A DNA stretch of 16,095 nucleotides from an uncultured Myxococcales bacterium. GTDB lineage: Bacteria > Myxococcota > UBA4151. Below are positions 1,917 through 16,095 of the stretch, piece by piece. The first letter of the stretch is position 1. Each line of letters opens with the position of its first letter. Under the pieces are notes generated by a model. The model did no database searches. It saw nothing but the letters and a program-made list of their open reading frames with translations, and was not told the DNA's origin. A program made the translations under genes and the position numbers. The stretch is from assembly GCA_964013405.1 (NCBI GenBank), contig CAXGWI010000079.1, positions 1-16,095 on the forward strand. The letters are read 5' to 3'.

Positions 1917-2996
1917 GTGTCCACGGAGTTGATCGCGGATCGCCGCTCGAGCCGGCAAATCCACATCGGCCAGGTGCCCATTGGCGGGGATGCGCCAATT
2001 TCGGTCCAATCCATGACCACGGTCGACACCCGGGACGTGGTGGCAACCATTGATCAACTGCGCCAACTCAAAGCAGCTGGCTGCGACATCGCCCGACTCG
2101 CTGTTCCCGACCAAGAGGCGGCAGAAGCACTTGAAGCGATCATGCATCGGGCCCCTCTTCCCGTGGTGGCCGACATCCATTTTAACTACAAGTTTGCACT
2201 CATGGCCGCTGATGCGGGTATCAGTGCCCTTCGCTTCAACCCAGGCAACATCGGTGCGGCCTGGAAAGTACGTGAACTGGTGGCTTCCGCCAAAGACCAT
2301 AACATTCCCATTCGAGTGGGGGTGAACGGTGGATCGGTGGAGAAGCGGTTAATGAAGAACCACGAAGGGGAGCCGACCCCCGAGATGCTGGTCGAGTCGG
2401 CCATGCATCACGTGCGGATCCTCGAAGATGAGAACTTCGAGGACATTAAGATTTCGGTGAAGTCGAGCCAGGTCCCAACCATGGTGGCGGCTTACAAGTT
2501 ACTGGCTGAACGGGTCGACTACCCGCTGCACCTCGGGGTCACCGAGGCAGGCACACCGCGCCTCGGCAGCCTGCGCAGTGCGCTCGGGATCGGCTTGTTA
2601 GTGTCCCAAGGTATCGGCGACACGATCCGAGTCAGCCTCACCGCAGATCCCGTCGAGGAGGTCGCAGCGGGCATCGCCATCTTGAAGGATCTGGGACTGC
2701 GACAGGGCGGCATGTGTTTGGTCAGCTGTCCCACCTGTGGACGCTGCACCGTCGACATGATCTCAGCCACCGAACGCATCGAAAAGAAGCTAGGCCCCAT
2801 TCAAGGCGACTTGCGGGTGGCGGTCATGGGCTGTGAAGTCAACGGTCCCGGTGAAGCGAAGGCCGCCGATGTCGGCATTGCGTATGGGCATGGGGTTGCG
2901 CTCTTGGTGAAGCGGGGTGAGGTCATTAAACGCCTTGATCCAGACGTGGCCGAGGACGCCCTTGTTGCCGAGGTCAAAGACATGGTGAGCGAGTAA
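1917..2996 (+). CDS. ispG: 4-hydroxy-3-methylbut-2-en-1-yl diphosphate synthase (IspG/GcpE, MEP pathway)
   Basis: Motifs IGGDAPISVQSMT, VVADIHF, RFNPGNIG, IRVGVNGGS, YPLHLGVTEAG and GIGDTIRVSLT, with 4Fe-4S ligands in CPTCGRC and MGCEVNGPGE. GTG start at 1917 follows a strong GAGGAG RBS. Confidence 0.97.
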   Translation: MSTELIADRRSSRQIHIGQVPIGGDAPISVQSMTTVDTRDVVATIDQLRQLKAAGCDIARLAVPDQEAAEALEAIMHRAPLPVVADIHFNYKFALMAADAGISALRFNPGNIGAAWKVRELVASAKDHNIPIRVGVNGGSVEKRLMKNHEGEPTPEMLVESAMHHVRILEDENFEDIKISVKSSQVPTMVAAYKLLAERVDYPLHLGVTEAGTPRLGSLRSALGIGLLVSQGIGDTIRVSLTADPVEEVAAGIAILKDLGLRQGGMCLVSCPTCGRCTVDMISATERIEKKLGPIQGDLRVAVMGCEVNGPGEAKAADVGIAYGHGVALLVKRGEVIKRLDPDVAEDALVAEVKDMVSE

Positions 2997-3029
2997 GATT
3001 CTCGCACTGCTGTGTGCGCACGCGCGAGA

Positions 3030-3057
3030 TTGCAATGTCCGTAGAATAGGGCATACT
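3030..3057 (+). promoter_or_regulatory. Candidate sigma70-type promoter for the 3088-7501 operon
   Basis: TTGCAA (3030-3035) - 16 bp - CATACT (3052-3057). An alternative -10 hexamer, TAGAAT, lies at 3042-3047. AGGAG RBS at 3074-3078. Confidence 0.35.
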
Positions 3058-3087
3058 CCGACAGCGAAAGCTCAGGAGTTCCAAACG

Positions 3088-4317
3088 ATGATGCGTACAT
3101 CCCTCGTCCTGTCCTCCCTTTTCCTTCTCTGTGCTTGCCCGGGCGTGGTGCTCGATCAAGATGAAGGTGGTGGTGGCGGTTTGGCACCAAATATCCCCCC
3201 TCCCCAATGTGATCGAGACGGCTTTGATGTGGATTTCTCCACCGCCACCGCCGGTGTGGGCCGGCGTGGCGGGAAGCGCTACCTTCGTTATGATGTCCGA
3301 GGCGATGGCGAGGTCTTTGATAAGCTCGAGGTCATCGCCTATCTCCGGGATGACGAAGAAAGCCTGCCGGCCGGTGACGAACCGATCCGGCTCTTCGCCG
3401 AAGACGGCCTCGCAAACTGTGAGACCTGCGTCATTGCCTATCGGGGCTGTGATGGAGATACCTGTGCCGAAACTTATCTCGCTGATGGTGAACTCCTCGT
3501 CAGCTCGTCCGGGACCGAAGGTGACACCTTCAAGGCGAAACTCGTCTGGGATCGGGCGCAAACGATCTTCCGGGAGGTCGATGGCGACGGTGAGGTCCAC
3601 GAGCGGGGCTATGAGTTCTGCGGCTCTAACCTCACCTTTGAAGCGCCCATTGGCAACGACCGTAAGGGCAGTTGCAGCGACACCGGCGACGGCGCCAAGG
3701 TGGGTAATTTGCTCGCCGACTGGGCTTTGCCGAACTGCTACGGCGATATGGTCGGACTCCACGATGACTGTGGTCGAGTGAAGGCGAAGGTCCTCATGCT
3801 CACCACCGGTTGGTGCCCCGCCTGCGCGACTCGGGTCCCCCAAATGGAGACCGAGATGGCGCCGAAGGCTGCAGACGGTGCGCAAGTCTACTACCTTCTC
3901 GGTGAGATGGGTCGAGGCGAGCCGCCATCGCCAGCGGCGTGCATGGGCTACGCCCGGGGCAAGGGGATCGATCCTGCCCGCATGCTGATCGACAACGCGC
4001 AGATTCCCAATGGCAATTACGTGTCGTTCTACAACACGGTCTACGGTCGACCCTTCGACCAGCCAGACCTGGATCAAAATGACGGCAATGCGGTCAACTC
4101 AGCATTCAACCAGCAGCGGTACACGAAGCTGTCCACCTGCCCGTCCATGGACGACCGGGATGGCGATGGTGCACCGGACTACATGTGGGGTCTGCCCTAC
4201 ACGGCAGTCCTCGACGGCGAAAACAATCGTTACGTTTGGGGCAGCGGGGACTCAACGGTCTGCCCGAGCCCCTACGGCTCCCACAGCCAGGCTGTCACCG
4301 ACCTGTTGAACCGTTAA
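3088..4317 (+). CDS. Cys-rich lipoprotein with C-terminal thioredoxin-like (redoxin) domain
   Basis: AGGAG RBS; hydrophobic N-terminus ending LLCAC (lipobox-like); N-terminal Cys-rich domain with CETC; redoxin-like segment KVGNLLADWALPNCYGDMVGLHD...VLMLTTGWCPAC (CxxC at 3814-3825); DxDGDG acidic motifs. Confidence 0.7.
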   Translation: MMRTSLVLSSLFLLCACPGVVLDQDEGGGGGLAPNIPPPQCDRDGFDVDFSTATAGVGRRGGKRYLRYDVRGDGEVFDKLEVIAYLRDDEESLPAGDEPIRLFAEDGLANCETCVIAYRGCDGDTCAETYLADGELLVSSSGTEGDTFKAKLVWDRAQTIFREVDGDGEVHERGYEFCGSNLTFEAPIGNDRKGSCSDTGDGAKVGNLLADWALPNCYGDMVGLHDDCGRVKAKVLMLTTGWCPACATRVPQMETEMAPKAADGAQVYYLLGEMGRGEPPSPAACMGYARGKGIDPARMLIDNAQIPNGNYVSFYNTVYGRPFDQPDLDQNDGNAVNSAFNQQRYTKLSTCPSMDDRDGDGAPDYMWGLPYTAVLDGENNRYVWGSGDSTVCPSPYGSHSQAVTDLLNR

Positions 4318-4320
4318 ACC

Positions 4321-4647
4321 TTGCGCCCGCCGCTTTGGATCGGACCCCTATTGCTGGTCCTCGCCGCCCCCGCCGCCGCTCAGGATGTGAGCGGTGACGG
4401 TGGCTTAGACGGTGGCATCAGCGACACGGAGATTTGCGACAACTGCAGTCCAGCCGTCGTCGACTTCGAGGCCTGGGATGTGGGCCCGCAGGAGCGTCAG
4501 GATGCTGGTCTGCGGCAACGCCGGGCCCGCCCCGACGCCGGGATCCAAAATGCGCCTGAGTCCGGCGGCTTCGGTTGTAGCACCGGGGTCATGGGCCTGG
4601 AGCCCCTGTTCCTGCTCGGCCTGCTCCGACGTAGAAAGAAAAGGTAG
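4321..4647 (+). CDS. Small secreted protein with MYXO-CTERM-like sorting tail
   Basis: Signal peptide ending AAAQ, a low-complexity DGG/DAG-rich body with one CDNC motif, and the C-terminus GGFGCST-hydrophobic stretch-LLRRRKKR. It fills the gap between its neighbours (3 bp and 6 bp spacers). The TTG start is uncertain. Confidence 0.7.
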   Translation: MRPPLWIGPLLLVLAAPAAAQDVSGDGGLDGGISDTEICDNCSPAVVDFEAWDVGPQERQDAGLRQRRARPDAGIQNAPESGGFGCSTGVMGLEPLFLLGLLRRRKKR

Positions 4648-4653
4648 CGCACC

Positions 4654-5604
4654 ATGGTGGCTCTGCGCTCACTTCTCCTCCTTAGTCTCGCTTGCGTGCC
4701 CTCCGTCACGCCCACCCCCTACGAGCCCTATGCCCTCGACAATCAGGGCTTGATCGACTGTGCCGCGCCCCCGGCCTGTGACATCAACGCCGTGTTTTGT
4801 CCCTGCGCCGATGCGCCCAACTGGCAGTTGGAAGATTTCCAGAATGCAAGCCCACGCAAAGGTGAGACCTACGGAATTCAGGACCTATTGGGCGAAGGCA
4901 AGGTGGTCATCGTCAGCTTCTTCTTTGGTGGCTGCGATGCCTGCCATCAGCAAATGGCTGCCATGCAGATCATGCAGGATAAACTGCATGCCCAGGGTTA
5001 TACGGACGTCGTCTTTATCACCATCAACCAGAAGGAATACTCCAACGACACGGCCCAAGCTGAGTACTTCCGGCGCCGTAGTAGTATTGTTTGTAGCACC
5101 GGCGATTACCCCTCCTGTGACGAGAACGGAACGGTGCTCGTCACCTTCCCCCTCTTCCAGGACACCGTTGAGGGCGGCGGTTGGTCCTCCCATCAAGGGC
5201 AGAAGGACGACATCTTGATCTACCGGGCCGATGGGAAGCTCCACCGCTTCTACGGCTCCATGGAACGAGAGGATCCAGCCGAACGGCAGGATCCCAAGCT
5301 GGCCCTGGAAGCCAATCCCGACAACTTCCGCTTGTTGGAACGGGCCATTCAGTCGGCTTTCGGGGTCCAGGCCTGCACAGATGATAGCGACTGTGAAGCC
5401 ACTGGCGGATGGTGCCGGCTTCCCGATGGCAGCTGTGGCGGCGAAGGGGTCTGCGCCCCTAGCCCCCTCGAAGGCGAGGTCACACAATGCTGGGAAACCC
5501 TCATGCCCCAACCGGTCTGTGGCTGTAATGGCGAAACCTACCTTAACCGCTGTGCGTTAGAGGCGGCCGGGACCAGCCTTCTCTACGCAGGCACCTGTCA
5601 GTAA
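4654..5604 (+). CDS. Lipoprotein with selenoprotein-P-N-like thioredoxin-fold domain (CxxC) and C-terminal Kazal-type domain
   Basis: Lipobox LSLAC; VVIVSFFFGGCDAC; KLHAQGYTDVVFITIN; FPLFQD; WSSHQGQKDDILIYRADGKL; Kazal signature PVCGCNGETYLNRC...AG..LLYAGTC at the C-terminus. Confidence 0.75.
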   Translation: MVALRSLLLLSLACVPSVTPTPYEPYALDNQGLIDCAAPPACDINAVFCPCADAPNWQLEDFQNASPRKGETYGIQDLLGEGKVVIVSFFFGGCDACHQQMAAMQIMQDKLHAQGYTDVVFITINQKEYSNDTAQAEYFRRRSSIVCSTGDYPSCDENGTVLVTFPLFQDTVEGGGWSSHQGQKDDILIYRADGKLHRFYGSMEREDPAERQDPKLALEANPDNFRLLERAIQSAFGVQACTDDSDCEATGGWCRLPDGSCGGEGVCAPSPLEGEVTQCWETLMPQPVCGCNGETYLNRCALEAAGTSLLYAGTCQ

Positions 5605-5618
5605 AGGGAGAACGAGCC

Positions 5619-5981
5619 ATGCGATCGCTCCTTTTGACCTTGGCAGTCCTGAGTTTAGGCGGCTGCAAGGGCTATGACTCGAACAAGAACCTCGATCAGT
5701 TCACCGATGGAGAGATGTCGGCCCTGTGCCATTGGGCCTACCAGCTGCGGGGGGGCTCGAGTCGCCTGCAACAATGCGAGGACGCCGACGGCACCGCGGT
5801 CAGCGTTGTCCTCGATGTAGAGACTGCCGAGTTATCCCGCTGTGTAGGTATGCCGAGACCTGCCTGCCCAGCCATCTACTTTGAAGACTGTACCGAAGCC
5901 ATTGCTAACGATCCTTGCACTGGCGCCGCCAGCAAAGCGTGCTTGGACTGGAGCGACTACTGCGAACTGAAGGAAGATTGA
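5619..5981 (+). CDS. Small Cys-rich lipoprotein, function unknown
   Basis: GGGAG RBS, lipobox LGGC, eight further Cys in the mature region, and a TGATG overlap with the next gene. Confidence 0.75.
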   Translation: MRSLLLTLAVLSLGGCKGYDSNKNLDQFTDGEMSALCHWAYQLRGGSSRLQQCEDADGTAVSVVLDVETAELSRCVGMPRPACPAIYFEDCTEAIANDPCTGAASKACLDWSDYCELKED

Positions 5982-7501
5982 TGCGCCTTACCCTGACAGC
6001 CCTCGCCGCTCTGGCCCTTTTCTTCGCGCCCAACTGGGCCCAGGCTCAGTGTGCAACCTGTGGCAACCCGGCCGTCCAAGCGGGGGGACAGTCCTTCTCC
6101 GGTGAGCAGCCTGGGAGCGGCTTCGCGGCGGAGTTTATCTACGGCTACCTCAATCTCGATGATTTCGTGGACGGGGAAAACAACAACGCCCCTGTTTCGG
6201 CGGAGACCGTCAAAGACCTCATGGGTGTCGACAACTTCCGTATGACTGTCCACTCCACGACCCTGATCGGTCGTTACGGTATCAAGGGTGGACACACCTT
6301 TGGCTTGGTGGTTCCGGCTGGCTATCCCATCACGAACAAGGGTGGCAGTCCGAAGGGTCAGTTCGGCATCGGTGATTTGGATTTAAGCGCCACGCTCAAC
6401 TTGAAGGACCTCATCAGCGATAAACTGCCGGCCCTGAGTCTGAGACTTGGCACCGTCTTACCCACGGGCACCTTCAGCTTTGCGGGAACAGCCCAAGCCG
6501 TGGCCGCCGAGCAATACGTGAGTTTGGGCCGGGGCAGCTATTGGGGTTCGGCCGGGCTCAGCCTCTTTGGCAAGGTCACCGACGACCTCTCTTACTTGGC
6601 TTCGGTGAGTTATCAGCAGCCCTTCAACACCTACAAGACCGATGCTGGGGCTGGGCAGACCGCCACCTTCCGCTTTGGTCAGGAGATTCGGGCCAGCGGC
6701 GGGCTGATCTACCCACTCAAAAAGGGGGAGTGGAACCTCGTCCTTCAGGCCGACTTCTCCCAGCGTTCCGCCGCCATGCAGCAGCTCGCCGGTGAGACCG
6801 AAGCGACCCCCTTCGAAAAGACCGCTGGCAGCAATGCTAATCTCCTGCCTGCCATCAGTTGGACCAAGGACAAGCTGACCTCCACCGTCGCGATGACCTA
6901 CCCCATCTACTTCCAAGTGAAGTCGGTGGACATCATCCCCGACCCCAGCGTTTATCTCTCGTTCAGCTACCGCTTCGGCAGCTCGGCACCGACCGGACCC
7001 AAACCAGCCATCGAGCCGGGCGACGACCCCATCGACCCCAACGTGGTGGGCAAACTGCCGCCCGGCAAGATCACCATCGTGGACTACTGGGCCGAGTGGT
7101 GCCTCATCTGTAAAAAGATCACCCCCGGCATGAAGGCCTACACCAGCGCCTGGGACGATGTGCACTTCATCAAGGTGGACGCCACCAAGTGGGATGTGCC
7201 CGAGTTCGAGAAGTACCTGCCGGCCCAACCGAGCCTGCCGGTAATCGATATCTTCAATCGGGAGGGCAAACTGCATCAGCGCCTCTCCGGCGAGGCCTGC
7301 AGCGAGTTCGTCAACAACGGCTACAAGCTCCTCGATGGCCTGCCCGGCGGTGGCCCCAAAGTGAAAGCCGCCGCGAAGCCAGAGCCCGAGGAGGAGGTGC
7401 CAAGCACGGAGCAGGAGCCTGCGCCCGCTGCTGAGCCGGCCAAAGGCACCACAGGCGAAGTGGAGCCCGAGCCTATCCCGAGCATCGAGATCGCTAACTA
7501 A
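5981..7501 (+). CDS. Outer-membrane beta-barrel (COG4313/MetA-pathway 'transporter'-like) fused to a C-terminal thioredoxin domain
   Basis: Start moved to ATG 5981 (TGATG coupling). Signal peptide ending AQA, then QCATC. Barrel-family motifs GIGDLDLS, LRLGTVLPTG and SLGRGS, alternating amphipathic strands ending YLSFSYRF, a Pro-rich linker, Trx motif ITIVDYWAEWCLIC (CxxC 7100-7111) with FIKVD and LPVIDIF, and a P/E/A-rich tail. Confidence 0.7.
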   Translation: MRLTLTALAALALFFAPNWAQAQCATCGNPAVQAGGQSFSGEQPGSGFAAEFIYGYLNLDDFVDGENNNAPVSAETVKDLMGVDNFRMTVHSTTLIGRYGIKGGHTFGLVVPAGYPITNKGGSPKGQFGIGDLDLSATLNLKDLISDKLPALSLRLGTVLPTGTFSFAGTAQAVAAEQYVSLGRGSYWGSAGLSLFGKVTDDLSYLASVSYQQPFNTYKTDAGAGQTATFRFGQEIRASGGLIYPLKKGEWNLVLQADFSQRSAAMQQLAGETEATPFEKTAGSNANLLPAISWTKDKLTSTVAMTYPIYFQVKSVDIIPDPSVYLSFSYRFGSSAPTGPKPAIEPGDDPIDPNVVGKLPPGKITIVDYWAEWCLICKKITPGMKAYTSAWDDVHFIKVDATKWDVPEFEKYLPAQPSLPVIDIFNREGKLHQRLSGEACSEFVNNGYKLLDGLPGGGPKVKAAAKPEPEEEVPSTEQEPAPAAEPAKGTTGEVEPEPIPSIEIAN

Positions 7502-8162
7502 GCTGCTGCCCAGTCCACGTGGCGGGGCGACCTTGCCCCGGTGCGACCAATTCAAGGACACGGTCACTGAGCCGCTGAGCTTCGACCCGGTCGTGGGTCA
7601 CCATCAGCGCCGCGGCCCCCTCCAATTGGATTTGCTCCCGAAACCAAGCCCCGAGTTCGGAGCGCAGCTCCGTGTCCAAGTTGGCAAAGGGCTCATCGAG
7701 CAGCAGGAGCCGAGGCTTCGGCGCCAGGGCCCGGGCGAAGCCAACCCGCTGCTGCTGCCCGCCGCTGAGTTGGGCTGGAAGTCGATCTGCGAGGGGTGCA
7801 AGCCCCAAGCGCTCGAGCAGGGTCTCAGTACGCGCCTGGGCTTCAGCTTGGCCTTTCAGACCAAAGGCGACGTTCTGGGCCACCGTCATGTGACTAAAGA
7901 GGGCAAAGTCCTGAAAGACCATACCGACCCGGCGCCGCTGGGGTGGCAGGCCGCTCACGTTGTGGCCAGAAAGGTGGATCTCCCCCTCGAGGGGTTCCAA
8001 GAAGCCGGCGATGGCCCGCAGAAGACTGGACTTCCCCACACCGCTCGCCCCCACAACGGCAACGATCTCCCCCTCGGCCAGTTGCAAGGAGAGACCACCG
8101 GCGACCGCTTCGCCGTCGTAGCCAATCGCCAGTTTCTTCAACTCAAGGACCGCTTCAATCAT
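7494..8162 (-). CDS. fbpC: ABC transporter ATP-binding subunit (FbpC/PotA-like, short form)
   Basis: Walker A GASGVGKS, Q-loop VFQDFALF, signature LSGGQQQR, Walker B LLLLDEPF, H-loop VTHD. ATG 8162 follows GGAG and overlaps the permease stop. The symbol is family-level. Confidence 0.88.
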   Translation of the reverse strand: MIEAVLELKKLAIGYDGEAVAGGLSLQLAEGEIVAVVGASGVGKSSLLRAIAGFLEPLEGEIHLSGHNVSGLPPQRRRVGMVFQDFALFSHMTVAQNVAFGLKGQAEAQARTETLLERLGLAPLADRLPAQLSGGQQQRVGFARALAPKPRLLLLDEPFANLDTELRSELGAWFREQIQLEGAAALMVTHDRVEAQRLSDRVLELVAPGQGRPATWTGQQLS

Positions 8163-9891
8163 GGTCACTCCATCGCCTAAGCAGGCTTTGAGCCACAAGC
8201 ACCATCGCCAAAAGCAACAGAGCACTGACACCTAATTCAGCAAAGTGTGCGTCTTCGTGACCGTCATAAATAATGGTCGCCAGGGAATGGTGTCCGGCCG
8301 GCAACAGCATCAGTGTAATCGGCAATTCTTTGATGGCAGCGATAAAGGCCAGCAAAAACCCAGCGGCCGCTGCCGGGGCTAAGGTGGGCATTCGAATCTC
8401 GAAGAAAATCCGAGCGTTGGAAGCCCCGAGCGTTTGAGCCGCCTCCAAAGGTCGAGGGTCTTCCCGTAAAAATGCAGATTTCATCAGGCCGTATGGATGG
8501 GCAAGAAAGCGGAGTCCGAGCCCCAAAATCAGCAGCAGGAACAAGCCCTCCAAAACCTGAGCGATGCCATGGGGGAGGACTTGGACCAACTGGAGGAAGC
8601 CATAGGCCGTCAGCACACCGGGGAGCCCACTGACTCCGTACGCGATGAACTCAGTCCATGAACCCCCACCCCCTCTTTGGGCCGTCCAGCGGGCCGGAAT
8701 TCCGCCCAGAAGCAGAGCGATGCAACCGGCACCGAGTCCCAGGCCTGCAGTGGTGAGTGCGGCTGCACCCATGGGCATGATGAGAAAGGCTAGAGCCATC
8801 GGCACAACGACAAAGGCCACAGCCATCAACACGAACACAAAGGTCACAGCCACGAGCACAGCCACAGGCATGAGCGCAAACGAGACAGGAATGGGCATGA
8901 GCAACATGACCACTGCAAGGGGAAGAAAGCTCAGAAGGCGATAGCTAAGTCCAACCCACGCCGCCATAGGAGTCCCGAAGGCTCCTTCGAGGCCCCACTG
9001 GGCGATGACCACGAGGGGCAGGACCAGGGCTGCCCCCAGATACACGGCTTGCAAGGCGTAGACCCCAACGAGATGAATCGGCTTTGGACGGAGTCGACCA
9101 ACGCTTCGCAGGCCCGCCCGCCCGAGGGCTTCACTGCCCCTTTGGCCCTGCACCCAACGCCCAAGAGCGACCAAGGGCAAGACGGCTGCGACCATCACGA
9201 GCCCCAGGGCTGCGGGGTTGGGGCCCCCATACTTGGCGGCCTGGAACAGCTCCCAGGTCAGCACCCGGGTATTTAGCACCGCGACCGCGCCAAAGTCAGC
9301 CACGGCGTAGAGCAGGACCAGCAGGGCGCCAAAGGCGATGGCTGGCCGGAGTGCCGGCCACTGAACCTCACTCAAAAGGCGCCAGGGCCCCGCACCAAGG
9401 CTGCGGGCAGCCTCTTCCTGATCCCTAGCGAGGGCAGAGATAGCCGAGGACAGGGTGAGCTGAACATAGGGCGCACAGGCAAGGCCAAGCACAAAGACAC
9501 TGGCCCAGAAGCCCTCAAAGCGACCACTCAGGCCTAAGGGTTCTCCCAGGTGCCCTTTCGGAGCCAGCGCCTCCCGTATGGTAATGGCGAGAAGAAAGCT
9601 GGGCAAGACCAGTGGGAGCACAGTGAGGCGGGCGAGTAAGATCTGTCCCGGGTAATGCCAACGAGCTTGCACCCAGGCGAAGGGCGCACCGAAGAGAAAG
9701 GCGACGCCGCACACACAAAGGGCCAAACACAAGCTTCGCAGAAGCGTCCACCAAACGGATGGCCATGACAGGGGCACCGAGACCAAGCCGGGAGGCCCCC
9801 AGAACGCGAGCAAGGTGCCGACCAGAGGCAAGATCCCCAGGCCCAGACAGAGCCAGGTGGCCCAGCGGACCCAAGGAGCGGGCCGGTGCAC
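8155..9891 (-). CDS. fbpB: Iron(III) ABC transporter permease (FbpB/FutB-like, two BPD_transp_1 halves) with an extra hydrophobic insert
   Basis: Two EAA motifs (EEAARSLGA, LEAAQTLGA), plus VLPLVLPSF, ADFGAVAVL and IKELPITLML. The GTG start overlaps the TAG of the binding-protein gene. The symbol is family-level. Confidence 0.88.
   Translation of the reverse strand: MHRPAPWVRWATWLCLGLGILPLVGTLLAFWGPPGLVSVPLSWPSVWWTLLRSLCLALCVCGVAFLFGAPFAWVQARWHYPGQILLARLTVLPLVLPSFLLAITIREALAPKGHLGEPLGLSGRFEGFWASVFVLGLACAPYVQLTLSSAISALARDQEEAARSLGAGPWRLLSEVQWPALRPAIAFGALLVLLYAVADFGAVAVLNTRVLTWELFQAAKYGGPNPAALGLVMVAAVLPLVALGRWVQGQRGSEALGRAGLRSVGRLRPKPIHLVGVYALQAVYLGAALVLPLVVIAQWGLEGAFGTPMAAWVGLSYRLLSFLPLAVVMLLMPIPVSFALMPVAVLVAVTFVFVLMAVAFVVVPMALAFLIMPMGAAALTTAGLGLGAGCIALLLGGIPARWTAQRGGGGSWTEFIAYGVSGLPGVLTAYGFLQLVQVLPHGIAQVLEGLFLLLILGLGLRFLAHPYGLMKSAFLREDPRPLEAAQTLGASNARIFFEIRMPTLAPAAAAGFLLAFIAAIKELPITLMLLPAGHHSLATIIYDGHEDAHFAELGVSALLLLAMVLVAQSLLRRWSDHD
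8776..8856. repeat. Degenerate 27-bp tandem repeat (3 copies) inside the permease gene
   Basis: catgatgagaaaggctagagccatcgg / cacaacgacaaaggccacagccatcaa / cacgaacacaaaggtcacagccacgag, sharing a core aaagg(c/t)nanagcca. Confidence 0.65.
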
Positions 9892-10928
9892 TAGTCGATC
9901 CCCAACTCCCGCAGCAGAGTGAGACTGGCAGCCACATCATTGAGTGCCGCTTGCGTGTTTTGCGCCACCCCTTCGGGCGGTTTCACGTCGGGGTGGAGCG
10001 CCACGCCCTCGACCACAGGATACTCATAGGCTTTCTGCGTAAAGTAGCTCTGTCCTTTGGGGCTCAATAGGAATGCGATCAACTTCTCCGCGTACTCCAC
10101 TTGGTCACTGGATTTCGGAATCCCAACCCCCGCGAGCATCATCACATTGCCCGCATCACCCCCTTGAAAACTGTGATTTGCCGCCTTCAAGCCTGGATTC
10201 GCCGCTTTGATCTTATGTAGGTAATAGTGATTCACCCAGCCCATATCGATCTCGCCTAAATCCACCGCCTTCACTTGGGGCGAATTCTTTGGATAGCGAG
10301 CAGGATTTTGCGCATTCATGGCCGTGAGCCATGTCTTGGTCTTCTCCACGCCCCACAGGCTCCGCAACGCGCTCACATGGGCTTGCATGCTGGCGTTACC
10401 CGGCGCCCAACCGATCCGCCCCTTGTACTGAGGCAGGACGAGATCCTCTAAGCGCTGCGGCAATTCTTCGGCTTTCACCCGTTCCGGGGAATAGACCAAC
10501 ACTCGCAGGCGACCGCTGGTCGCAACCCAATGCTTCTTGGGCCCCCGAGCCGTCTCAGGAACCTTGGCCAAAAGAGCGTCGGGTAAGGGTCGCAAGTGCC
10601 CCCGGTCACCAAGGGTTGTGAGGTAACCGACCGCCTGGGCAAAGAACAGATCGGCATCGCTGCGATCGCCCTCGGTCACCAAGCGGTTCGCCAGCGCTTC
10701 TGTGTTCTTGTTGAAACGTAGCTTCACTTCCACGCCCTCGGTGGCAGCCCATTCCTTCAGGAGCGGCTCCACGAGGATGGCGCTGCGCCCTGAATAGATA
10801 GTGAAGACAGGTTTTTCGACGGCGACTTCTGGGGCTTTCTTAACCCCTTTTTCTGCCGCCGATTCTTGCGGCTGACTGGAACAGGCAAGTCCTGAGCTCA
10901 GACAAAACAAGAGGGCGAATCGTTGCAT
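9891..10928 (-). CDS. fbpA: Iron(III) ABC transporter substrate-binding lipoprotein (FbpA/FutA/AfuA-like)
   Basis: AGGAGA RBS and lipobox GLAC. Motifs TIYSGR, EGDRSDADLFF, GRLRVLVY, KGRIGWAPGNAS, the iron-ligating tandem Tyr in VNHYY, and EYPV. The symbol is family-level. Confidence 0.9.
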   Translation of the reverse strand: MQRFALLFCLSSGLACSSQPQESAAEKGVKKAPEVAVEKPVFTIYSGRSAILVEPLLKEWAATEGVEVKLRFNKNTEALANRLVTEGDRSDADLFFAQAVGYLTTLGDRGHLRPLPDALLAKVPETARGPKKHWVATSGRLRVLVYSPERVKAEELPQRLEDLVLPQYKGRIGWAPGNASMQAHVSALRSLWGVEKTKTWLTAMNAQNPARYPKNSPQVKAVDLGEIDMGWVNHYYLHKIKAANPGLKAANHSFQGGDAGNVMMLAGVGIPKSSDQVEYAEKLIAFLLSPKGQSYFTQKAYEYPVVEGVALHPDVKPPEGVAQNTQAALNDVAASLTLLRELGID

Positions 10929-11108: not shown

Positions 11109-12575
11109 GTGATGATGACCGAGAACCCTTATGCCACCGCTTTAGACGGACTGATCCTCGCTGACCCCGTCGCCGCCTTCTTCGCCTTTTGTCGGGAGCG
11201 AGAAGCCGTGCGGATTCGTCGGGCATCCGGTGCACCGGCTCCCTGGTCCCAGGACGAAATCTTCCAAAGGGGTCGTTTCCTCAACGTGTTTCGGGAAGAT
11301 GACCGCGGCAGTCAGGCATTGCTGCGCTTTGCTAAGCCGGTGGCAAAAGACTTAGAGCGCTTAGTTCATGCCCTCTTCTTTGCTCGTTGGTGCAATCGCC
11401 AATCCACCCTGGACAGCCTCTCTGCTAATCTGCTGGAATCACCGGAGGCATTGATTCCAACTCTTGAGGCCTTGCCCGAGCCGCCATGGTGTAACTGGAC
11501 GGCCTACCCTGTGGAGCCGATCCGCTGGCAGGGGAAACTCTACAGTCGCTGGGACAGCGCCACCGACTTGTTTCGGCGCATCCGCCCGGAACTGACGGAC
11601 GTCATCTGCGCTGCCGGTGGCGATGTCATCAAGGCCACCGAGGCGGTCAACGGCTTGCTTCACATGGACAACGACTTTCCTATCTTTATGGCGGTTATGG
11701 ATCTGGCCTGGTTTCGCCCCGACATCATCGACCCTGCGAGTCCGGTACCCACCGGGATCGGCGCCGCTCCATTTCTGGACCGCCTCGAAAATGCCCTCGG
11801 CGCAAAGGATCACCAAGATACAGCGCAGCGGATGATCGAGCTGCAGCGGACTTTTTGGCCCGAAGCCAAACGCCCCTTTCAACCCATCGATATCGAATAC
11901 CTGGCCTGCGAATGCCGGAAGTATTACAGCTACGTGAACGGCACCAAAGCCTTCGAGGGTAAAAACCGATTTCAAGCGGGGCGCACGGCCCGGCTGAGTT
12001 TTGACCTGGACCTCCCGAGGCCTCAGGAACCTGAGATAACCACCCAGATCCACATCATTGCGGGGGGACCCTGTTCCGGTAAGACCACGCTTCTCAATGG
12101 GCTCGCTGAAGCCGGCTACCGGGTGGAGGTCGAAACTGCGGAACGGATGTTGAAGGAGGGCATTGCCGCTGGGCAGACAGCCCAGGAACTCCGGGCCGAC
12201 CCCCTGCAATGGCAGCAGGAGGTGATGCGCCAGGATTATGCCCTTTTTCATCGCTTACCGGTCGACGAGTTGGTCTTCGCTGACACCTCGTTCATCGAGA
12301 CCCTGGTCTTTGCCGAGCGAGCCGGGATGGAACTGGGCCCCAATCTGCGCCGTTGGCTGCGTCACAAGCGCTATCGGCGCGTCTTCTTTCTCGAGCCACT
12401 CCCGGCCTACGAAGAAAGCGCTGTCCGCATCGAATCCCAGGATCTTGCGAAGCAGATCAGTGCGCAGGTACGTGCCGCCTATGAGGCCTACGACTACGAA
12501 CTGATCCCCGTGCCAGCGGCACCCTTAGCCGAGCGCATCGCCTTCATCGAGTCGTGCCTGAAAGCGGACGGCTAG
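11109..12575 (+). CDS. Fusion of aGPT-Pplase1 / 5-hmdU DNA kinase helical domain (N-term) and AAA_28/NadR-type P-loop NTPase/kinase (C-term)
   Basis: The N-terminal FFAFCRERE..R..R..G..APWSQDEIF...RFLNVFREDDR.S and IDIEYLACECRKY match the aGPT-Pplase1 pattern as I recall it. The C-terminal IIAGGPCSGKTTLL..L...GY..E.E.A, VFADTS, Y..VFFLEP and Y.LI.VP....ERI.FI match AAA_28. GGAG lies upstream; the start could be 11109, 11112 or 11115. Confidence 0.75.
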   Translation: MMMTENPYATALDGLILADPVAAFFAFCREREAVRIRRASGAPAPWSQDEIFQRGRFLNVFREDDRGSQALLRFAKPVAKDLERLVHALFFARWCNRQSTLDSLSANLLESPEALIPTLEALPEPPWCNWTAYPVEPIRWQGKLYSRWDSATDLFRRIRPELTDVICAAGGDVIKATEAVNGLLHMDNDFPIFMAVMDLAWFRPDIIDPASPVPTGIGAAPFLDRLENALGAKDHQDTAQRMIELQRTFWPEAKRPFQPIDIEYLACECRKYYSYVNGTKAFEGKNRFQAGRTARLSFDLDLPRPQEPEITTQIHIIAGGPCSGKTTLLNGLAEAGYRVEVETAERMLKEGIAAGQTAQELRADPLQWQQEVMRQDYALFHRLPVDELVFADTSFIETLVFAERAGMELGPNLRRWLRHKRYRRVFFLEPLPAYEESAVRIESQDLAKQISAQVRAAYEAYDYELIPVPAAPLAERIAFIESCLKADG

Positions 12576-14850: not shown

Positions 14851-15696
14851 ATGAAAAAGACACTCTTTCTCTGTTCCCTCGTCGCGCTCACCGCCTGCGG
14901 TGAGGGCGACTCCCCTGGACCTGCTGCGCCGCCCTCGGCGACCTGTGGTGATGGCACCGTGGATGAAGGGGAGGCCTGCGACGATGGCAACACCGATGTC
15001 ACCGATGCCTGTGCCGCCAATTGCCAGTTAGCCCGCTGCGGCGACGGCATCACCCGTCGGGATCTCAGCCTGGGTGCGGAGGGCTTTGAGGATTGCGACG
15101 ACGGCAACGAGGTGGATCACGATGGCTGCCGTGCAAATTGCGTAGGTGCTGTTTGTGGCGATGGCGTGGTGCGCTTGGACAAATCAGAAGGCGAGCCCGG
15201 CTACGAGTCCTGTGACGACGGCAACGACAACGATTTCGATCTCTGCACCGCCGCTTGCCAGCGCCCCCGTTGCGATGTGGATCGGGACTGTCCCCCCACC
15301 CTGTGGTGTCGAGATCAACGCTGCGGTGAGGAGCCCCCCGAGGCGCCGGAATGCAGCGACGATACGCCTTGCGAAGAGGGCTTTAGCTGCCGGGAGAGCC
15401 TGTGCATCCCCGACGACAGCGACGGCGATGGCATCGCCGATCTGCGGGACAACTGCCCCGGCTTTGCCAATGAAGACCAAGCCGACGGCGATCGAGATGG
15501 CGCCGGCGATGCCTGCGACCCCAACCCGGCCCGTCCCGACTACCGGGCCGGTGGACTGCGCCGCCGCCCACCCCAGGGCGGCGCCATGCAAGCGGCCGAT
15601 CAAGGCTACCGAATTCGTGGGCGTCTCCGCCCGCTGGACGGACGGGCCACGGCCAACGGCAGTCACCGTCTGAGAGGAGGTTTCCGTGCCCCATAA
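14851..15696 (+). CDS. Lipoprotein with Myxococcus cysteine-rich repeats (DUF4215-like) and thrombospondin type 3 Ca-binding repeats
   Basis: Lipobox LTAC; three CGDG...E.CDDGN....D.C...C units; two short C..D.(D/P)C.....C....C modules; TSP3 DSDGDGIADLRDNCP..ANEDQADGDRDGAGDACD; Arg/Gly-rich tail. Confidence 0.85.
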   Translation: MKKTLFLCSLVALTACGEGDSPGPAAPPSATCGDGTVDEGEACDDGNTDVTDACAANCQLARCGDGITRRDLSLGAEGFEDCDDGNEVDHDGCRANCVGAVCGDGVVRLDKSEGEPGYESCDDGNDNDFDLCTAACQRPRCDVDRDCPPTLWCRDQRCGEEPPEAPECSDDTPCEEGFSCRESLCIPDDSDGDGIADLRDNCPGFANEDQADGDRDGAGDACDPNPARPDYRAGGLRRRPPQGGAMQAADQGYRIRGRLRPLDGRATANGSHRLRGGFRAP

Positions 15697-16095
15697 TCTC
15701 TCAAGATTCGTGTGTGCGTTCGCCCTCCTGTTCGCGGCCAGCAGCGCCCAAGCCCGCCCCATGGTCTACGACGGCTACCTCACCGACTTGAACGACCAAC
15801 CGGTGGAAGCGGTGGTGAACCTGCGGGTTGCCCTCTATGGCGAGCAGCTCGGTGGCGACCCGTTATGGGAAGAGCTGCTCAGCGAGATCAGCGTGCGCAA
15901 CGGCGTCTTCAGCGCTGCCTTGGGCACCATCACCCCCTTTCCCGCCGGTCTCTTTGCCCGCCGTGATCTCTACTTGGGGCTCTCCGTGGACGGGGGCGAG
16001 TCTTTATCTCCAGTGGGTTTTCCTATCAGCGCTACACTTACGCTCAACGCAATGTGGGTGGCCAATTCTACTGTGAGTTGCTCATGGGCGAGGGT
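15686..16095 (+). CDS. Secreted/surface protein N-terminal part (partial; missing from the ORF track)
   Basis: GAGGAGG RBS (15674-15680) and GTG 15686 overlapping the previous stop. It reads MPHNLSRFVCAFALLFAASSAQA|RPMVYDGYLTDLNDQPVEAVVNLRVALYGEQLGGDPLWEE...VRNGVFSAALG...LYLGLSVDGGESLSP, resembling the N-terminal module of bacterial tail-fibre-like/adhesin proteins. The frame is open to the window edge. Confidence 0.8.
   Translation, partial: MPHNLSRFVCAFALLFAASSAQARPMVYDGYLTDLNDQPVEAVVNLRVALYGEQLGGDPLWEELLSEISVRNGVFSAALGTITPFPAGLFARRDLYLGLSVDGGESLSPVGFPISATLTLNAMWVANSTVSCSWAR

Follow-up and report, generated by a model that had tools for sequence, protein, structure and literature searches.

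A predicted outer-membrane barrel fused to thioredoxin and its redoxin lipoprotein partner: a candidate thiol-redox system in an uncultured myxobacterium

What do five closely packed genes carrying six CxxC motifs do together at the cell envelope of a myxobacterium? The question is raised by a stretch of 16,095 nucleotides from an uncultured Myxococcales bacterium (assembly GCA_964013405.1, contig CAXGWI010000079.1; the whole stretch is called the window here), and the source genome of this contig (C79) has 3.9 Mb and is 94% complete. The genes, named g1 to g5 in their order, are five open reading frames (ORFs) on the + strand with spacers of 3, 6 and 14 nt and then a 1-nt overlap between g4 and g5; g5 is the gene that joins a barrel to a thioredoxin. 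A preliminary description of the window had proposed an envelope thiol-redox or metal-handling operon, and its account of five co-oriented genes with this spacing and overlap agreed with the sequence, as did its six CxxC motifs (starting at 3418, 3814, 4435, 4933, 6050 and 7100). The broader proposal of an envelope thiol-redox system around a barrel, distinct from any described operon, was supported, with selenocysteine (Sec, U) replacing cysteine in relatives at C27 of g5 and C94 of g3. The conserved core is smaller than five genes: it consists of g5 and a redoxin lipoprotein of the g3 type, and the interest of the locus centres on this core and not on the five-gene order.

Gene order was compared in the family of the window (6 genomes, 2 of its own genus and 4 of a sister genus) and in more distant relatives. 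The five genes did not behave as a conserved unit, as their order was retained in 2/6 family genomes; the other own-genus genome keeps the whole block plus its flanks. In the sister genus, g4 and g5 are joined in all four genomes, while g1-g2-g3 are found at a separate locus in three of the four and g1 and g3 lie on two short contigs in the fourth. Outside the family, a redoxin lipoprotein adjoins the fused barrel gene in 16 of 21 genome loci: a g3-type gene lies directly downstream in 14 and divergently upstream in one, and a different lipoprotein with a WCGPC motif lies upstream in one. Among 19 metagenome loci whose contig includes the thioredoxin, some of them duplicates or close kin, a redoxin neighbour was present in 16, the flank was missing in two and no redoxin was seen in one. 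For comparison, 9 redoxin-motif ORFs were counted among 3082 in the own genome. The partner slot is filled by three different redoxin subfamilies. The linkage of g3, g4 and g5 is probably old and the split in the sister genus secondary, judging from the adjacency of g3-type and g5-type genes in distant lineages and from paralogous g3-g4 pairs, which were detected by matches to both genes in the own genome and in 4/5 relatives. The barrel was found in 38 of 401 genomes of the phylum, and the named relatives of g5 are mostly Myxococcota.

The g5 product is predicted to be an outer-membrane barrel of the COG4313/FapF superfamily, and the beta-barrel noticed in the preliminary description was recovered by profile search, by an AlphaFold2 model and by Foldseek. 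The model, built with 141 sequences, had a predicted local distance difference test score (pLDDT) of 90 and a predicted template modelling (TM) score (pTM) of 0.79, and contained 24 residues before strand 1, 12 long barrel strands and a thioredoxin. The top Foldseek matches were FapF and 4RL8, with E-values of 1.7e-14 and 4.3e-12, respectively, and TM-scores by target of 0.73-0.83. A profile search with the barrel only gave FapF at E=0.002 and 4RL8 at E=0.73. PF13557 (Phenol_MetA_deg) did not match g5, and one of eight family members matched it at E=0.0096. Across 58 aligned thioredoxin-bearing rows, the conserved features were Q-C-x-x-C-x-N-P, barrel glycines and prolines, WCxPC and the Leu-Pro loop. 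The two CxxC motifs hold the sole conserved cysteines of these rows, and the barrel interior has no conserved His, Met or Cys column in them. Both motifs are kept in every aligned family orthologue. The g5 protein of the own genus sits on a long branch and deviates from the consensus at several conserved positions. A second, weakly similar barrel is present in the own genome (L019 715-1176, G000:C221, - strand; tblastn E=0.007).

The three thioredoxin-like folds of the preliminary description proved to be those of g1, g3 and g5 in domain scans and models. The scans gave a weak AhpC/TSA match for g1, matches to SelP_N, AhpC/TSA and Kazal for g3, and thioredoxin for g5; nothing above cut-off was obtained for g2 and g4. 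In the predicted oxidoreductase domains of g1, g3 and g5, the active-site helix begins with a CxxC that is conserved in orthologues. The total of six CxxC motifs is a modest excess over the 2.4 expected from residue shuffles (p=0.025). The two motifs of g5 on their own clearly exceed such shuffles (p=0.0008), and they are the only ones clearly beyond chance because g1 and g3 are rich in cysteine. By conservation, four of the six motifs (CPAC, CDAC, CATC and CLIC) look redox-active. The two others, which had been counted as redox motifs as well, probably are not redox sites, as described below for g1 and g2.

Sec forms of the core genes occur among relatives. In four distant homologues of g5, a TGA stop occurs four residues past the signal peptide and the frame then resumes. 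In-frame UGA at the second cysteine or at both cysteines was found in 17 genomes outside the family and on 30 metagenome contigs. Among 45 loci read at the N-terminal motif, CxxC was present in 8, CxxU in 13 (one without thioredoxin) and UxxU in 4; the remaining loci are barrel-only with other N-termini, or cut. The CxxU DNA pattern was located in 30 metagenome stretches, and in all 30 it lies between a signal-like stretch and a match to the barrel profile; the frame ends early in two of them. C27 of g5 and C94 of g3 align with UGA at 17 barrel loci and 11 partner loci, respectively, and this exchange argues that both motifs are functional. A library of representative proteins contained 56 matches at E<1e-30, many beginning just past the expected Sec position.

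The bacterial selenocysteine insertion sequence (SECIS) model, as given in a 2026 survey, is a hairpin whose apical loop is G-led and follows the UGA at a distance of 16-37 nt (PMC13188914). Hairpins of this type with a G-led loop 16-22 nt past the UGA were present in 17/17 Sec barrels and 0/9 Cys barrels; one of the Sec barrel hairpins, at -7.2 kcal/mol, falls just short of the -7.5 of the model. SECIS-type geometry was seen in 11/11 Sec forms of the redoxin partner versus 3/9 Cys redoxins. The UxxC partner occurs in these 11 loci, and its hairpins exceed synonymous shuffles in 11/11 (p<=0.036). Barrel and partner share the same Sec or Cys state in 12 of 13 readable genome pairs, which are kin and not independent. 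Of the 17 Sec genomes, selA was found in 16 and tRNA-Sec in 16, with at least one of the two in each. In the own family, selA was found in 0/6 genomes and selB above cut-off in 0/4, and the top tRNA-Sec match was a tRNA-Ser; the motif codons of g3 and g5 in the window are TGC/TGT, with no UGA. The relatives of g5 and g3 thus appear to be selenoprotein families, judging from in-frame UGA, SECIS-type hairpins and Sec machinery, and the own family, apparently lacking this machinery, would run the system on cysteine.

Further forms were observed among the relatives. The UxxU clade (L118, L148, L149 and L150) combines two selenocysteines with long His-rich linkers between barrel and thioredoxin, and no redoxin partner was found at its loci; its members are the best candidates for metal handling. 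At L154 (6335-7189, -), a CxxU barrel lacks the thioredoxin. Small stand-alone redoxin selenoproteins with a UGYC motif occur at L229-L233 and were divided at the TGA by ORF calling. The gene at L020 comes from a record labelled Enterobacteriaceae (8.1-Mb genome) and groups with Myxococcota sequences, so the label may be wrong. At L141 (202-2372), a cluster with a DUF692/MbnB-type gene precedes a barrel-redoxin pair of the cysteine form by about 1 kb. In another family, g3-type redoxins are convergent to a cluster of cytochrome c and small-lipoprotein genes at several loci (L223-L228).

The g3 product matched SelP_N above its cut-off and NF053656 at E=1e-10 with 41.6 bits, below the cut-off of 100. 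Its CDAC motif is conserved in every aligned family orthologue. Lipobox-like cysteines were found by pattern in g1 (C17), g3 (C14) and g4 (C16), which agrees with the three lipoproteins proposed earlier as far as a pattern can, and the site in g3 is atypical.

We read g5 and the neighbouring redoxin lipoprotein g3 as a thiol or selenol relay through which reducing power of the periplasm would be passed across the outer membrane, and we hold this reading tentatively, with slightly less than an even chance of being right. The own genome has a DsbD-family gene elsewhere (G000:C200), so the earlier statement that no inner-membrane electron donor is encoded holds for the operon and not for the genome. 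DsbD would reduce the thioredoxin of g5; with 12 strands in the barrel, this domain would end up in the periplasm. The thioredoxin would in turn reduce the N-terminal CxxC, which may be placed in the lumen like the N-terminus of Pput2725, whose first 14 residues are described as folded inside the lumen, which they enter from the periplasm (PMC4493636). The CxxC plug would then exchange with the CxxC or UxxC of the partner lipoprotein, and the lipoprotein, if displayed outside, could act on surface or extracellular proteins by reducing or reshuffling their disulfides or oxidised thiols.

Several points weigh against this relay. Its activity, localisation and partner interaction are predictions from sequence and models, and the surface display of g3 is an assumption. 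The model of g5 leaves the N-terminal CxxC unplaced, with a pLDDT of only 54-58 for residues 1-20. The N-terminus of Pput2725 is described as blocking the periplasmic end of the lumen (PMC4493636), and the motif of g5 may therefore never reach the outer face. At 5 of the 21 fused loci outside the family, one of them on a 1.7-kb contig, no redoxin neighbour was found, and four of the five come from the UxxU clade, whose linkers are His-rich. The sister genus has g3 and g5 at separate loci, and g3-type redoxins were found in 6/6 genomes of another family that gave no barrel hit. The energy of the barrel hairpins beats synonymous shuffles in just 5/17, because the protein sequence itself constrains hairpin energy. 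The closest barrel-only relatives are linked to copper.

This copper link leads to the reading of g5 as a thiol- or selenol-gated channel that would carry a soft metal, for example Cu(I). Its CxxC or CxxU would bind the ion in the lumen, and the thioredoxin and redoxin would maintain this site in the reduced state or set the ion free. At the position of the g5 motif, barrel-only relatives begin with His-His, CxxCxC or CGSxxC, and 38 hand-picked proteins from their neighbourhoods were scanned: MbnP and MbnH lie directly upstream of 5/6 His-His barrel loci (the sixth was unscanned), and the Csp1 copper-storage gene flanks one CxxCxC locus. His-rich linkers in 13 of the 58 thioredoxin-bearing rows fit such a channel too, as do one fused locus after a DUF692/MbnB-type gene and one before an ArsR-type regulator. 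Near the fused genes themselves, scans covered 70 ORFs at 17 genome loci (66 out of 112 candidates, with 4 others added) as well as 62 out of 81 candidate ORFs at metagenome loci, and no MbnP/MbnH, Cop or Mer family matched at E<=1e-9; the only finds, once each, were the DUF692/MbnB-type gene, an ArsR-methyltransferase, a TerB-like domain and a TonB-receptor fragment. No MbnP or MbnH is encoded in the window, MbnP was not found in the own genome, and no riboswitch was found in the window or in 19 loci. The barrel lacks a conserved lining of metal ligands, and its constant partner is a redoxin and not a metal chaperone. Because metal genes are scarce beside the fused form, we rank the relay first and consider the metal channel possible but doubtful; both could apply if the plug reduces a metal bound there.

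Envelope quality control is a further, unlikely reading: redoxins facing the periplasm would repair lipoproteins rich in disulfides or isomerise their bonds, and the barrel would work like FapF as a redox-gated pore that exports small clients, unfolded or rich in cysteine. The FapF secretion barrel is indeed the best fold match; g1-g2-g3 run directly into a DegP-type protease gene in three sister-genus genomes (one of the three copies was scanned); about 140 of 3204 ORFs called in the own genome are cysteine-rich; and g2 and g4 could be clients. However, no client gene is conserved by the barrel outside the own family, and ten DsbA-type domains for oxidative folding are encoded elsewhere in the own genome. 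The 24 residues before strand 1 leave g5 without the long N-terminal coiled-coil region of FapF, and selenocysteine in the plug points to chemistry and not to a passive gate. The least probable reading, to which we give little credence, is that two unrelated modules, g1-g2-g3 and g4-g5, merely lie side by side in this genus and share no pathway. The sister genus does hold these modules apart, distant g1 homologues are isolated within about 1.5 kb, and the RNA evidence for a single transcript is very thin, since one metatranscriptome contig spans the g1-g2 junction only and may reflect DNA carry-over. Against it, g3-type genes stand beside g5-type genes in distant lineages, and the g3-g4 paralogue pair is present in at least 5/6 family genomes.

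If the relay exists, the core might be an outer-membrane counterpart of DsbD, with a mobile dithiol or selenol plug that is recharged by its own periplasmic thioredoxin and passes electrons to a surface (seleno)redoxin. Predatory and particle-degrading Myxococcota would thereby gain heme-free thiol reducing power outside the cell, and the two-selenoprotein module would have stayed hidden since gene callers cut both genes at UGA. Taken jointly, we regard these proposals as speculative and rather improbable. The window would then represent the all-cysteine version, expressible without Sec machinery.

The remaining genes of the run are likely additions specific to this family: g1 would supply a second redoxin, g2 a small peptide of the surface, and g4 an accessory or client rich in disulfides. 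The structure model of g1 (pLDDT 66) has a beta-rich domain and a ResA/TlpA-like domain, so the preliminary view that the system is not Dsb- or Ccm-like does not hold for the fold of this C-terminal domain. The CPAC of g1 (WCPAC) is kept in 6/6 family orthologues. Its CETC is missing in 4/4 sister-genus orthologues, present in 5/5 distant homologues of its domain, and part of a four-cysteine domain that also occurs in one protein without a redoxin domain; taken together, CETC is probably a structural disulfide. A g1-like redoxin with its N-terminal domain swapped for cysteine-rich repeats is encoded at L017 (about 7650-8600, G000:C25, -). The hallmarks of MYXO-CTERM are summarised as an invariant Cys, a hydrophobic helix and an Arg-rich end (PMC11980579). 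The tail of g2 shows a Cys, a hydrophobic stretch and an Arg cluster, and the tripartite pattern is present in 5/5 orthologues, with scores just below the model cut-offs (14.7 bits against 15.85 for g2; 15-16, up to 16.2, against 20 for the orthologues). The CDNC of g2 (4435) was found in 2/5 orthologues, of the own genus only, and is probably not a redox site. In all six family genomes, g4 lies directly 5' of g5, and the g4 paralogue follows the g3 paralogue.

Table 1. Positions of the features described, in window coordinates unless a locus is named.
Feature	Position	Strand	Remark
g1, 409 aa, predicted lipoprotein (Cys17)	3088..4317	+	
g1 N-terminal beta-rich four-cysteine domain	3205-3657	+	holds CETC
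g1 CETC, probably structural disulfide motif	3418..3429	+	
g1 C-terminal ResA/TlpA-like redoxin domain (WCPAC)	about 3670-4314	+	
g1 CPAC, redoxin active-site motif	3814..3825	+	
g2, 108 aa, small acidic exported peptide (predicted)	4321..4647	+	TTG start
g3, 316 aa, predicted lipoprotein	4654..5604	+	
g3 SelP_N/TUGYCR-related redoxin domain	4816-5358	+	
g3 CDAC, redoxin active-site motif	4933..4944	+	first Cys aligns with in-frame TGA in 11 partner genes
g3 Kazal-type domain	about 5371-5601	+	
g4, 120 aa, small cysteine-rich predicted lipoprotein	5619..5981	+	no named family
g5, 506 aa	5981..7501	+	
g5 signal peptide	5981-6046	+	
g5 CATC, mature residues 2-5 (C24/C27)	6050..6061	+	predicted lumen plug, unplaced in model
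g5 12-stranded COG4313/FapF-type barrel	6119-6979	+	
g5 thioredoxin domain, then low-complexity tail	about 7064-7321	+	
g5 CLIC, thioredoxin active site (family consensus WCxPC)	7100..7111	+	Leu-Pro loop residues 419-420
Paralogous g3-g4 pair without barrel	L018 13092-14608 (G000:C2)		own genome

Upstream of g1, ispG lies 91 nt away on the same strand (1926-3087). No terminator-like site was found in the interval, and with a gap of 91 nt read-through from ispG is therefore possible. The single RNA run that holds part of the window stretch is marine. Downstream, a convergent three-gene ATP-binding cassette (ABC) importer (7494-10928, -) overlaps the g5 stop by 8 nt. The tail-to-tail arrangement with an iron ABC transporter had been noted before; the arrangement itself was borne out, the importer adjoins g5 in the own genus only, and "iron" was the label of that first reading, as no NCBIfam model passes its cut-off for the importer. 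The importer permease has a long low-complexity hydrophobic insert. At 11109-12575 (+), a protein of 488 aa combines two domains, a 5-hmdU DNA kinase helical domain (PF18723, E=1e-20) and a NadR-type AAA_28 domain, in a fusion that is unusual for a cellular genome. At 14851-16095 (+), a lipoprotein with TIGR02232 cysteine repeats, DUF7107 and a TSP3 repeat is encoded; its gene overlaps one that has a weak match to a fibre-protein N-domain and runs off the contig.

To our knowledge, known disulfide electron relays stop in the periplasm. For the question of how surface or extracellular thiols are kept reduced in Gram-negatives, a redox-plug barrel with a tethered thioredoxin would be a concrete candidate; if the metal channel is the true reading, g5 would be a soft-metal channel independent of TonB. 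With either reading, the relatives would represent selenoprotein families that are not among the 119 tabulated for prokaryotes (PMC13188914, Table 1), and transporters are described as containing Sec extremely rarely (10.1101/2022.07.06.499078). The cysteine-only copy in the window offers a practical entry for biochemistry and structure.

Several known systems share parts of this arrangement. The COG4313/PF13557 channel Pput2725 (4RL8) lacks the N-terminal CxxC/CxxU/UxxU and the fused thioredoxin of g5, and the word "cysteine" is absent from the main text of its paper (PMC4493636). FapF of Pseudomonas amyloid secretion (5O65, 5O67 and 5O68) is the best profile and fold match of g5, at 15-17% identity, but the matched chains have no redox motifs or thioredoxin and no fap genes lie near g5. 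The MbnP-MbnH-barrel copper clusters (TIGR04052 and TIGR04039) contain a homologous barrel whose mature N-terminus bears likely ligands for metal; they differ from g5 in having no thioredoxin fusion, His instead of Cys or Sec, and other neighbours. The TUGYCR thioredoxin-fold (seleno)protein NF053656/SelP_N is a distant relative of g3, whose orthologues are UxxC selenoproteins by the same evidence; g3 adds cysteine-rich inserts, a Kazal domain and the barrel linkage. DsbD-fed reductases (ResA/TlpA/CcmG and DsbC) share chemistry and fold with the C-terminal domain of g1 and the thioredoxin of g5, and no NCBIfam model passes its cut-off; as far as we know, they end in the periplasm and none is fused to an outer-membrane barrel. 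Sec-containing outer-membrane barrels of other families, the GSU2204 MtrB/PioB-type protein (NF041027) and the FCYXU TonB-dependent receptor (NF049945), are listed in Table 1 of PMC13188914, and neither model was matched by g5 or four Sec-form relatives. The barrel-thioredoxin fusion with CxxC/CxxU/UxxU is absent from that table and gave no specific NCBIfam model match, and full-text searches, which covered few subscription papers, listed no paper on it, although supplements of selenoproteome surveys could list it. Neither the barrel fold nor the thioredoxin folds are new; their fusion with an N-terminal CxxC, CxxU or UxxU appears to be, and the window adds an all-cysteine version in a Sec-less lineage, in which barrel and g3-type partner belong to a single run.

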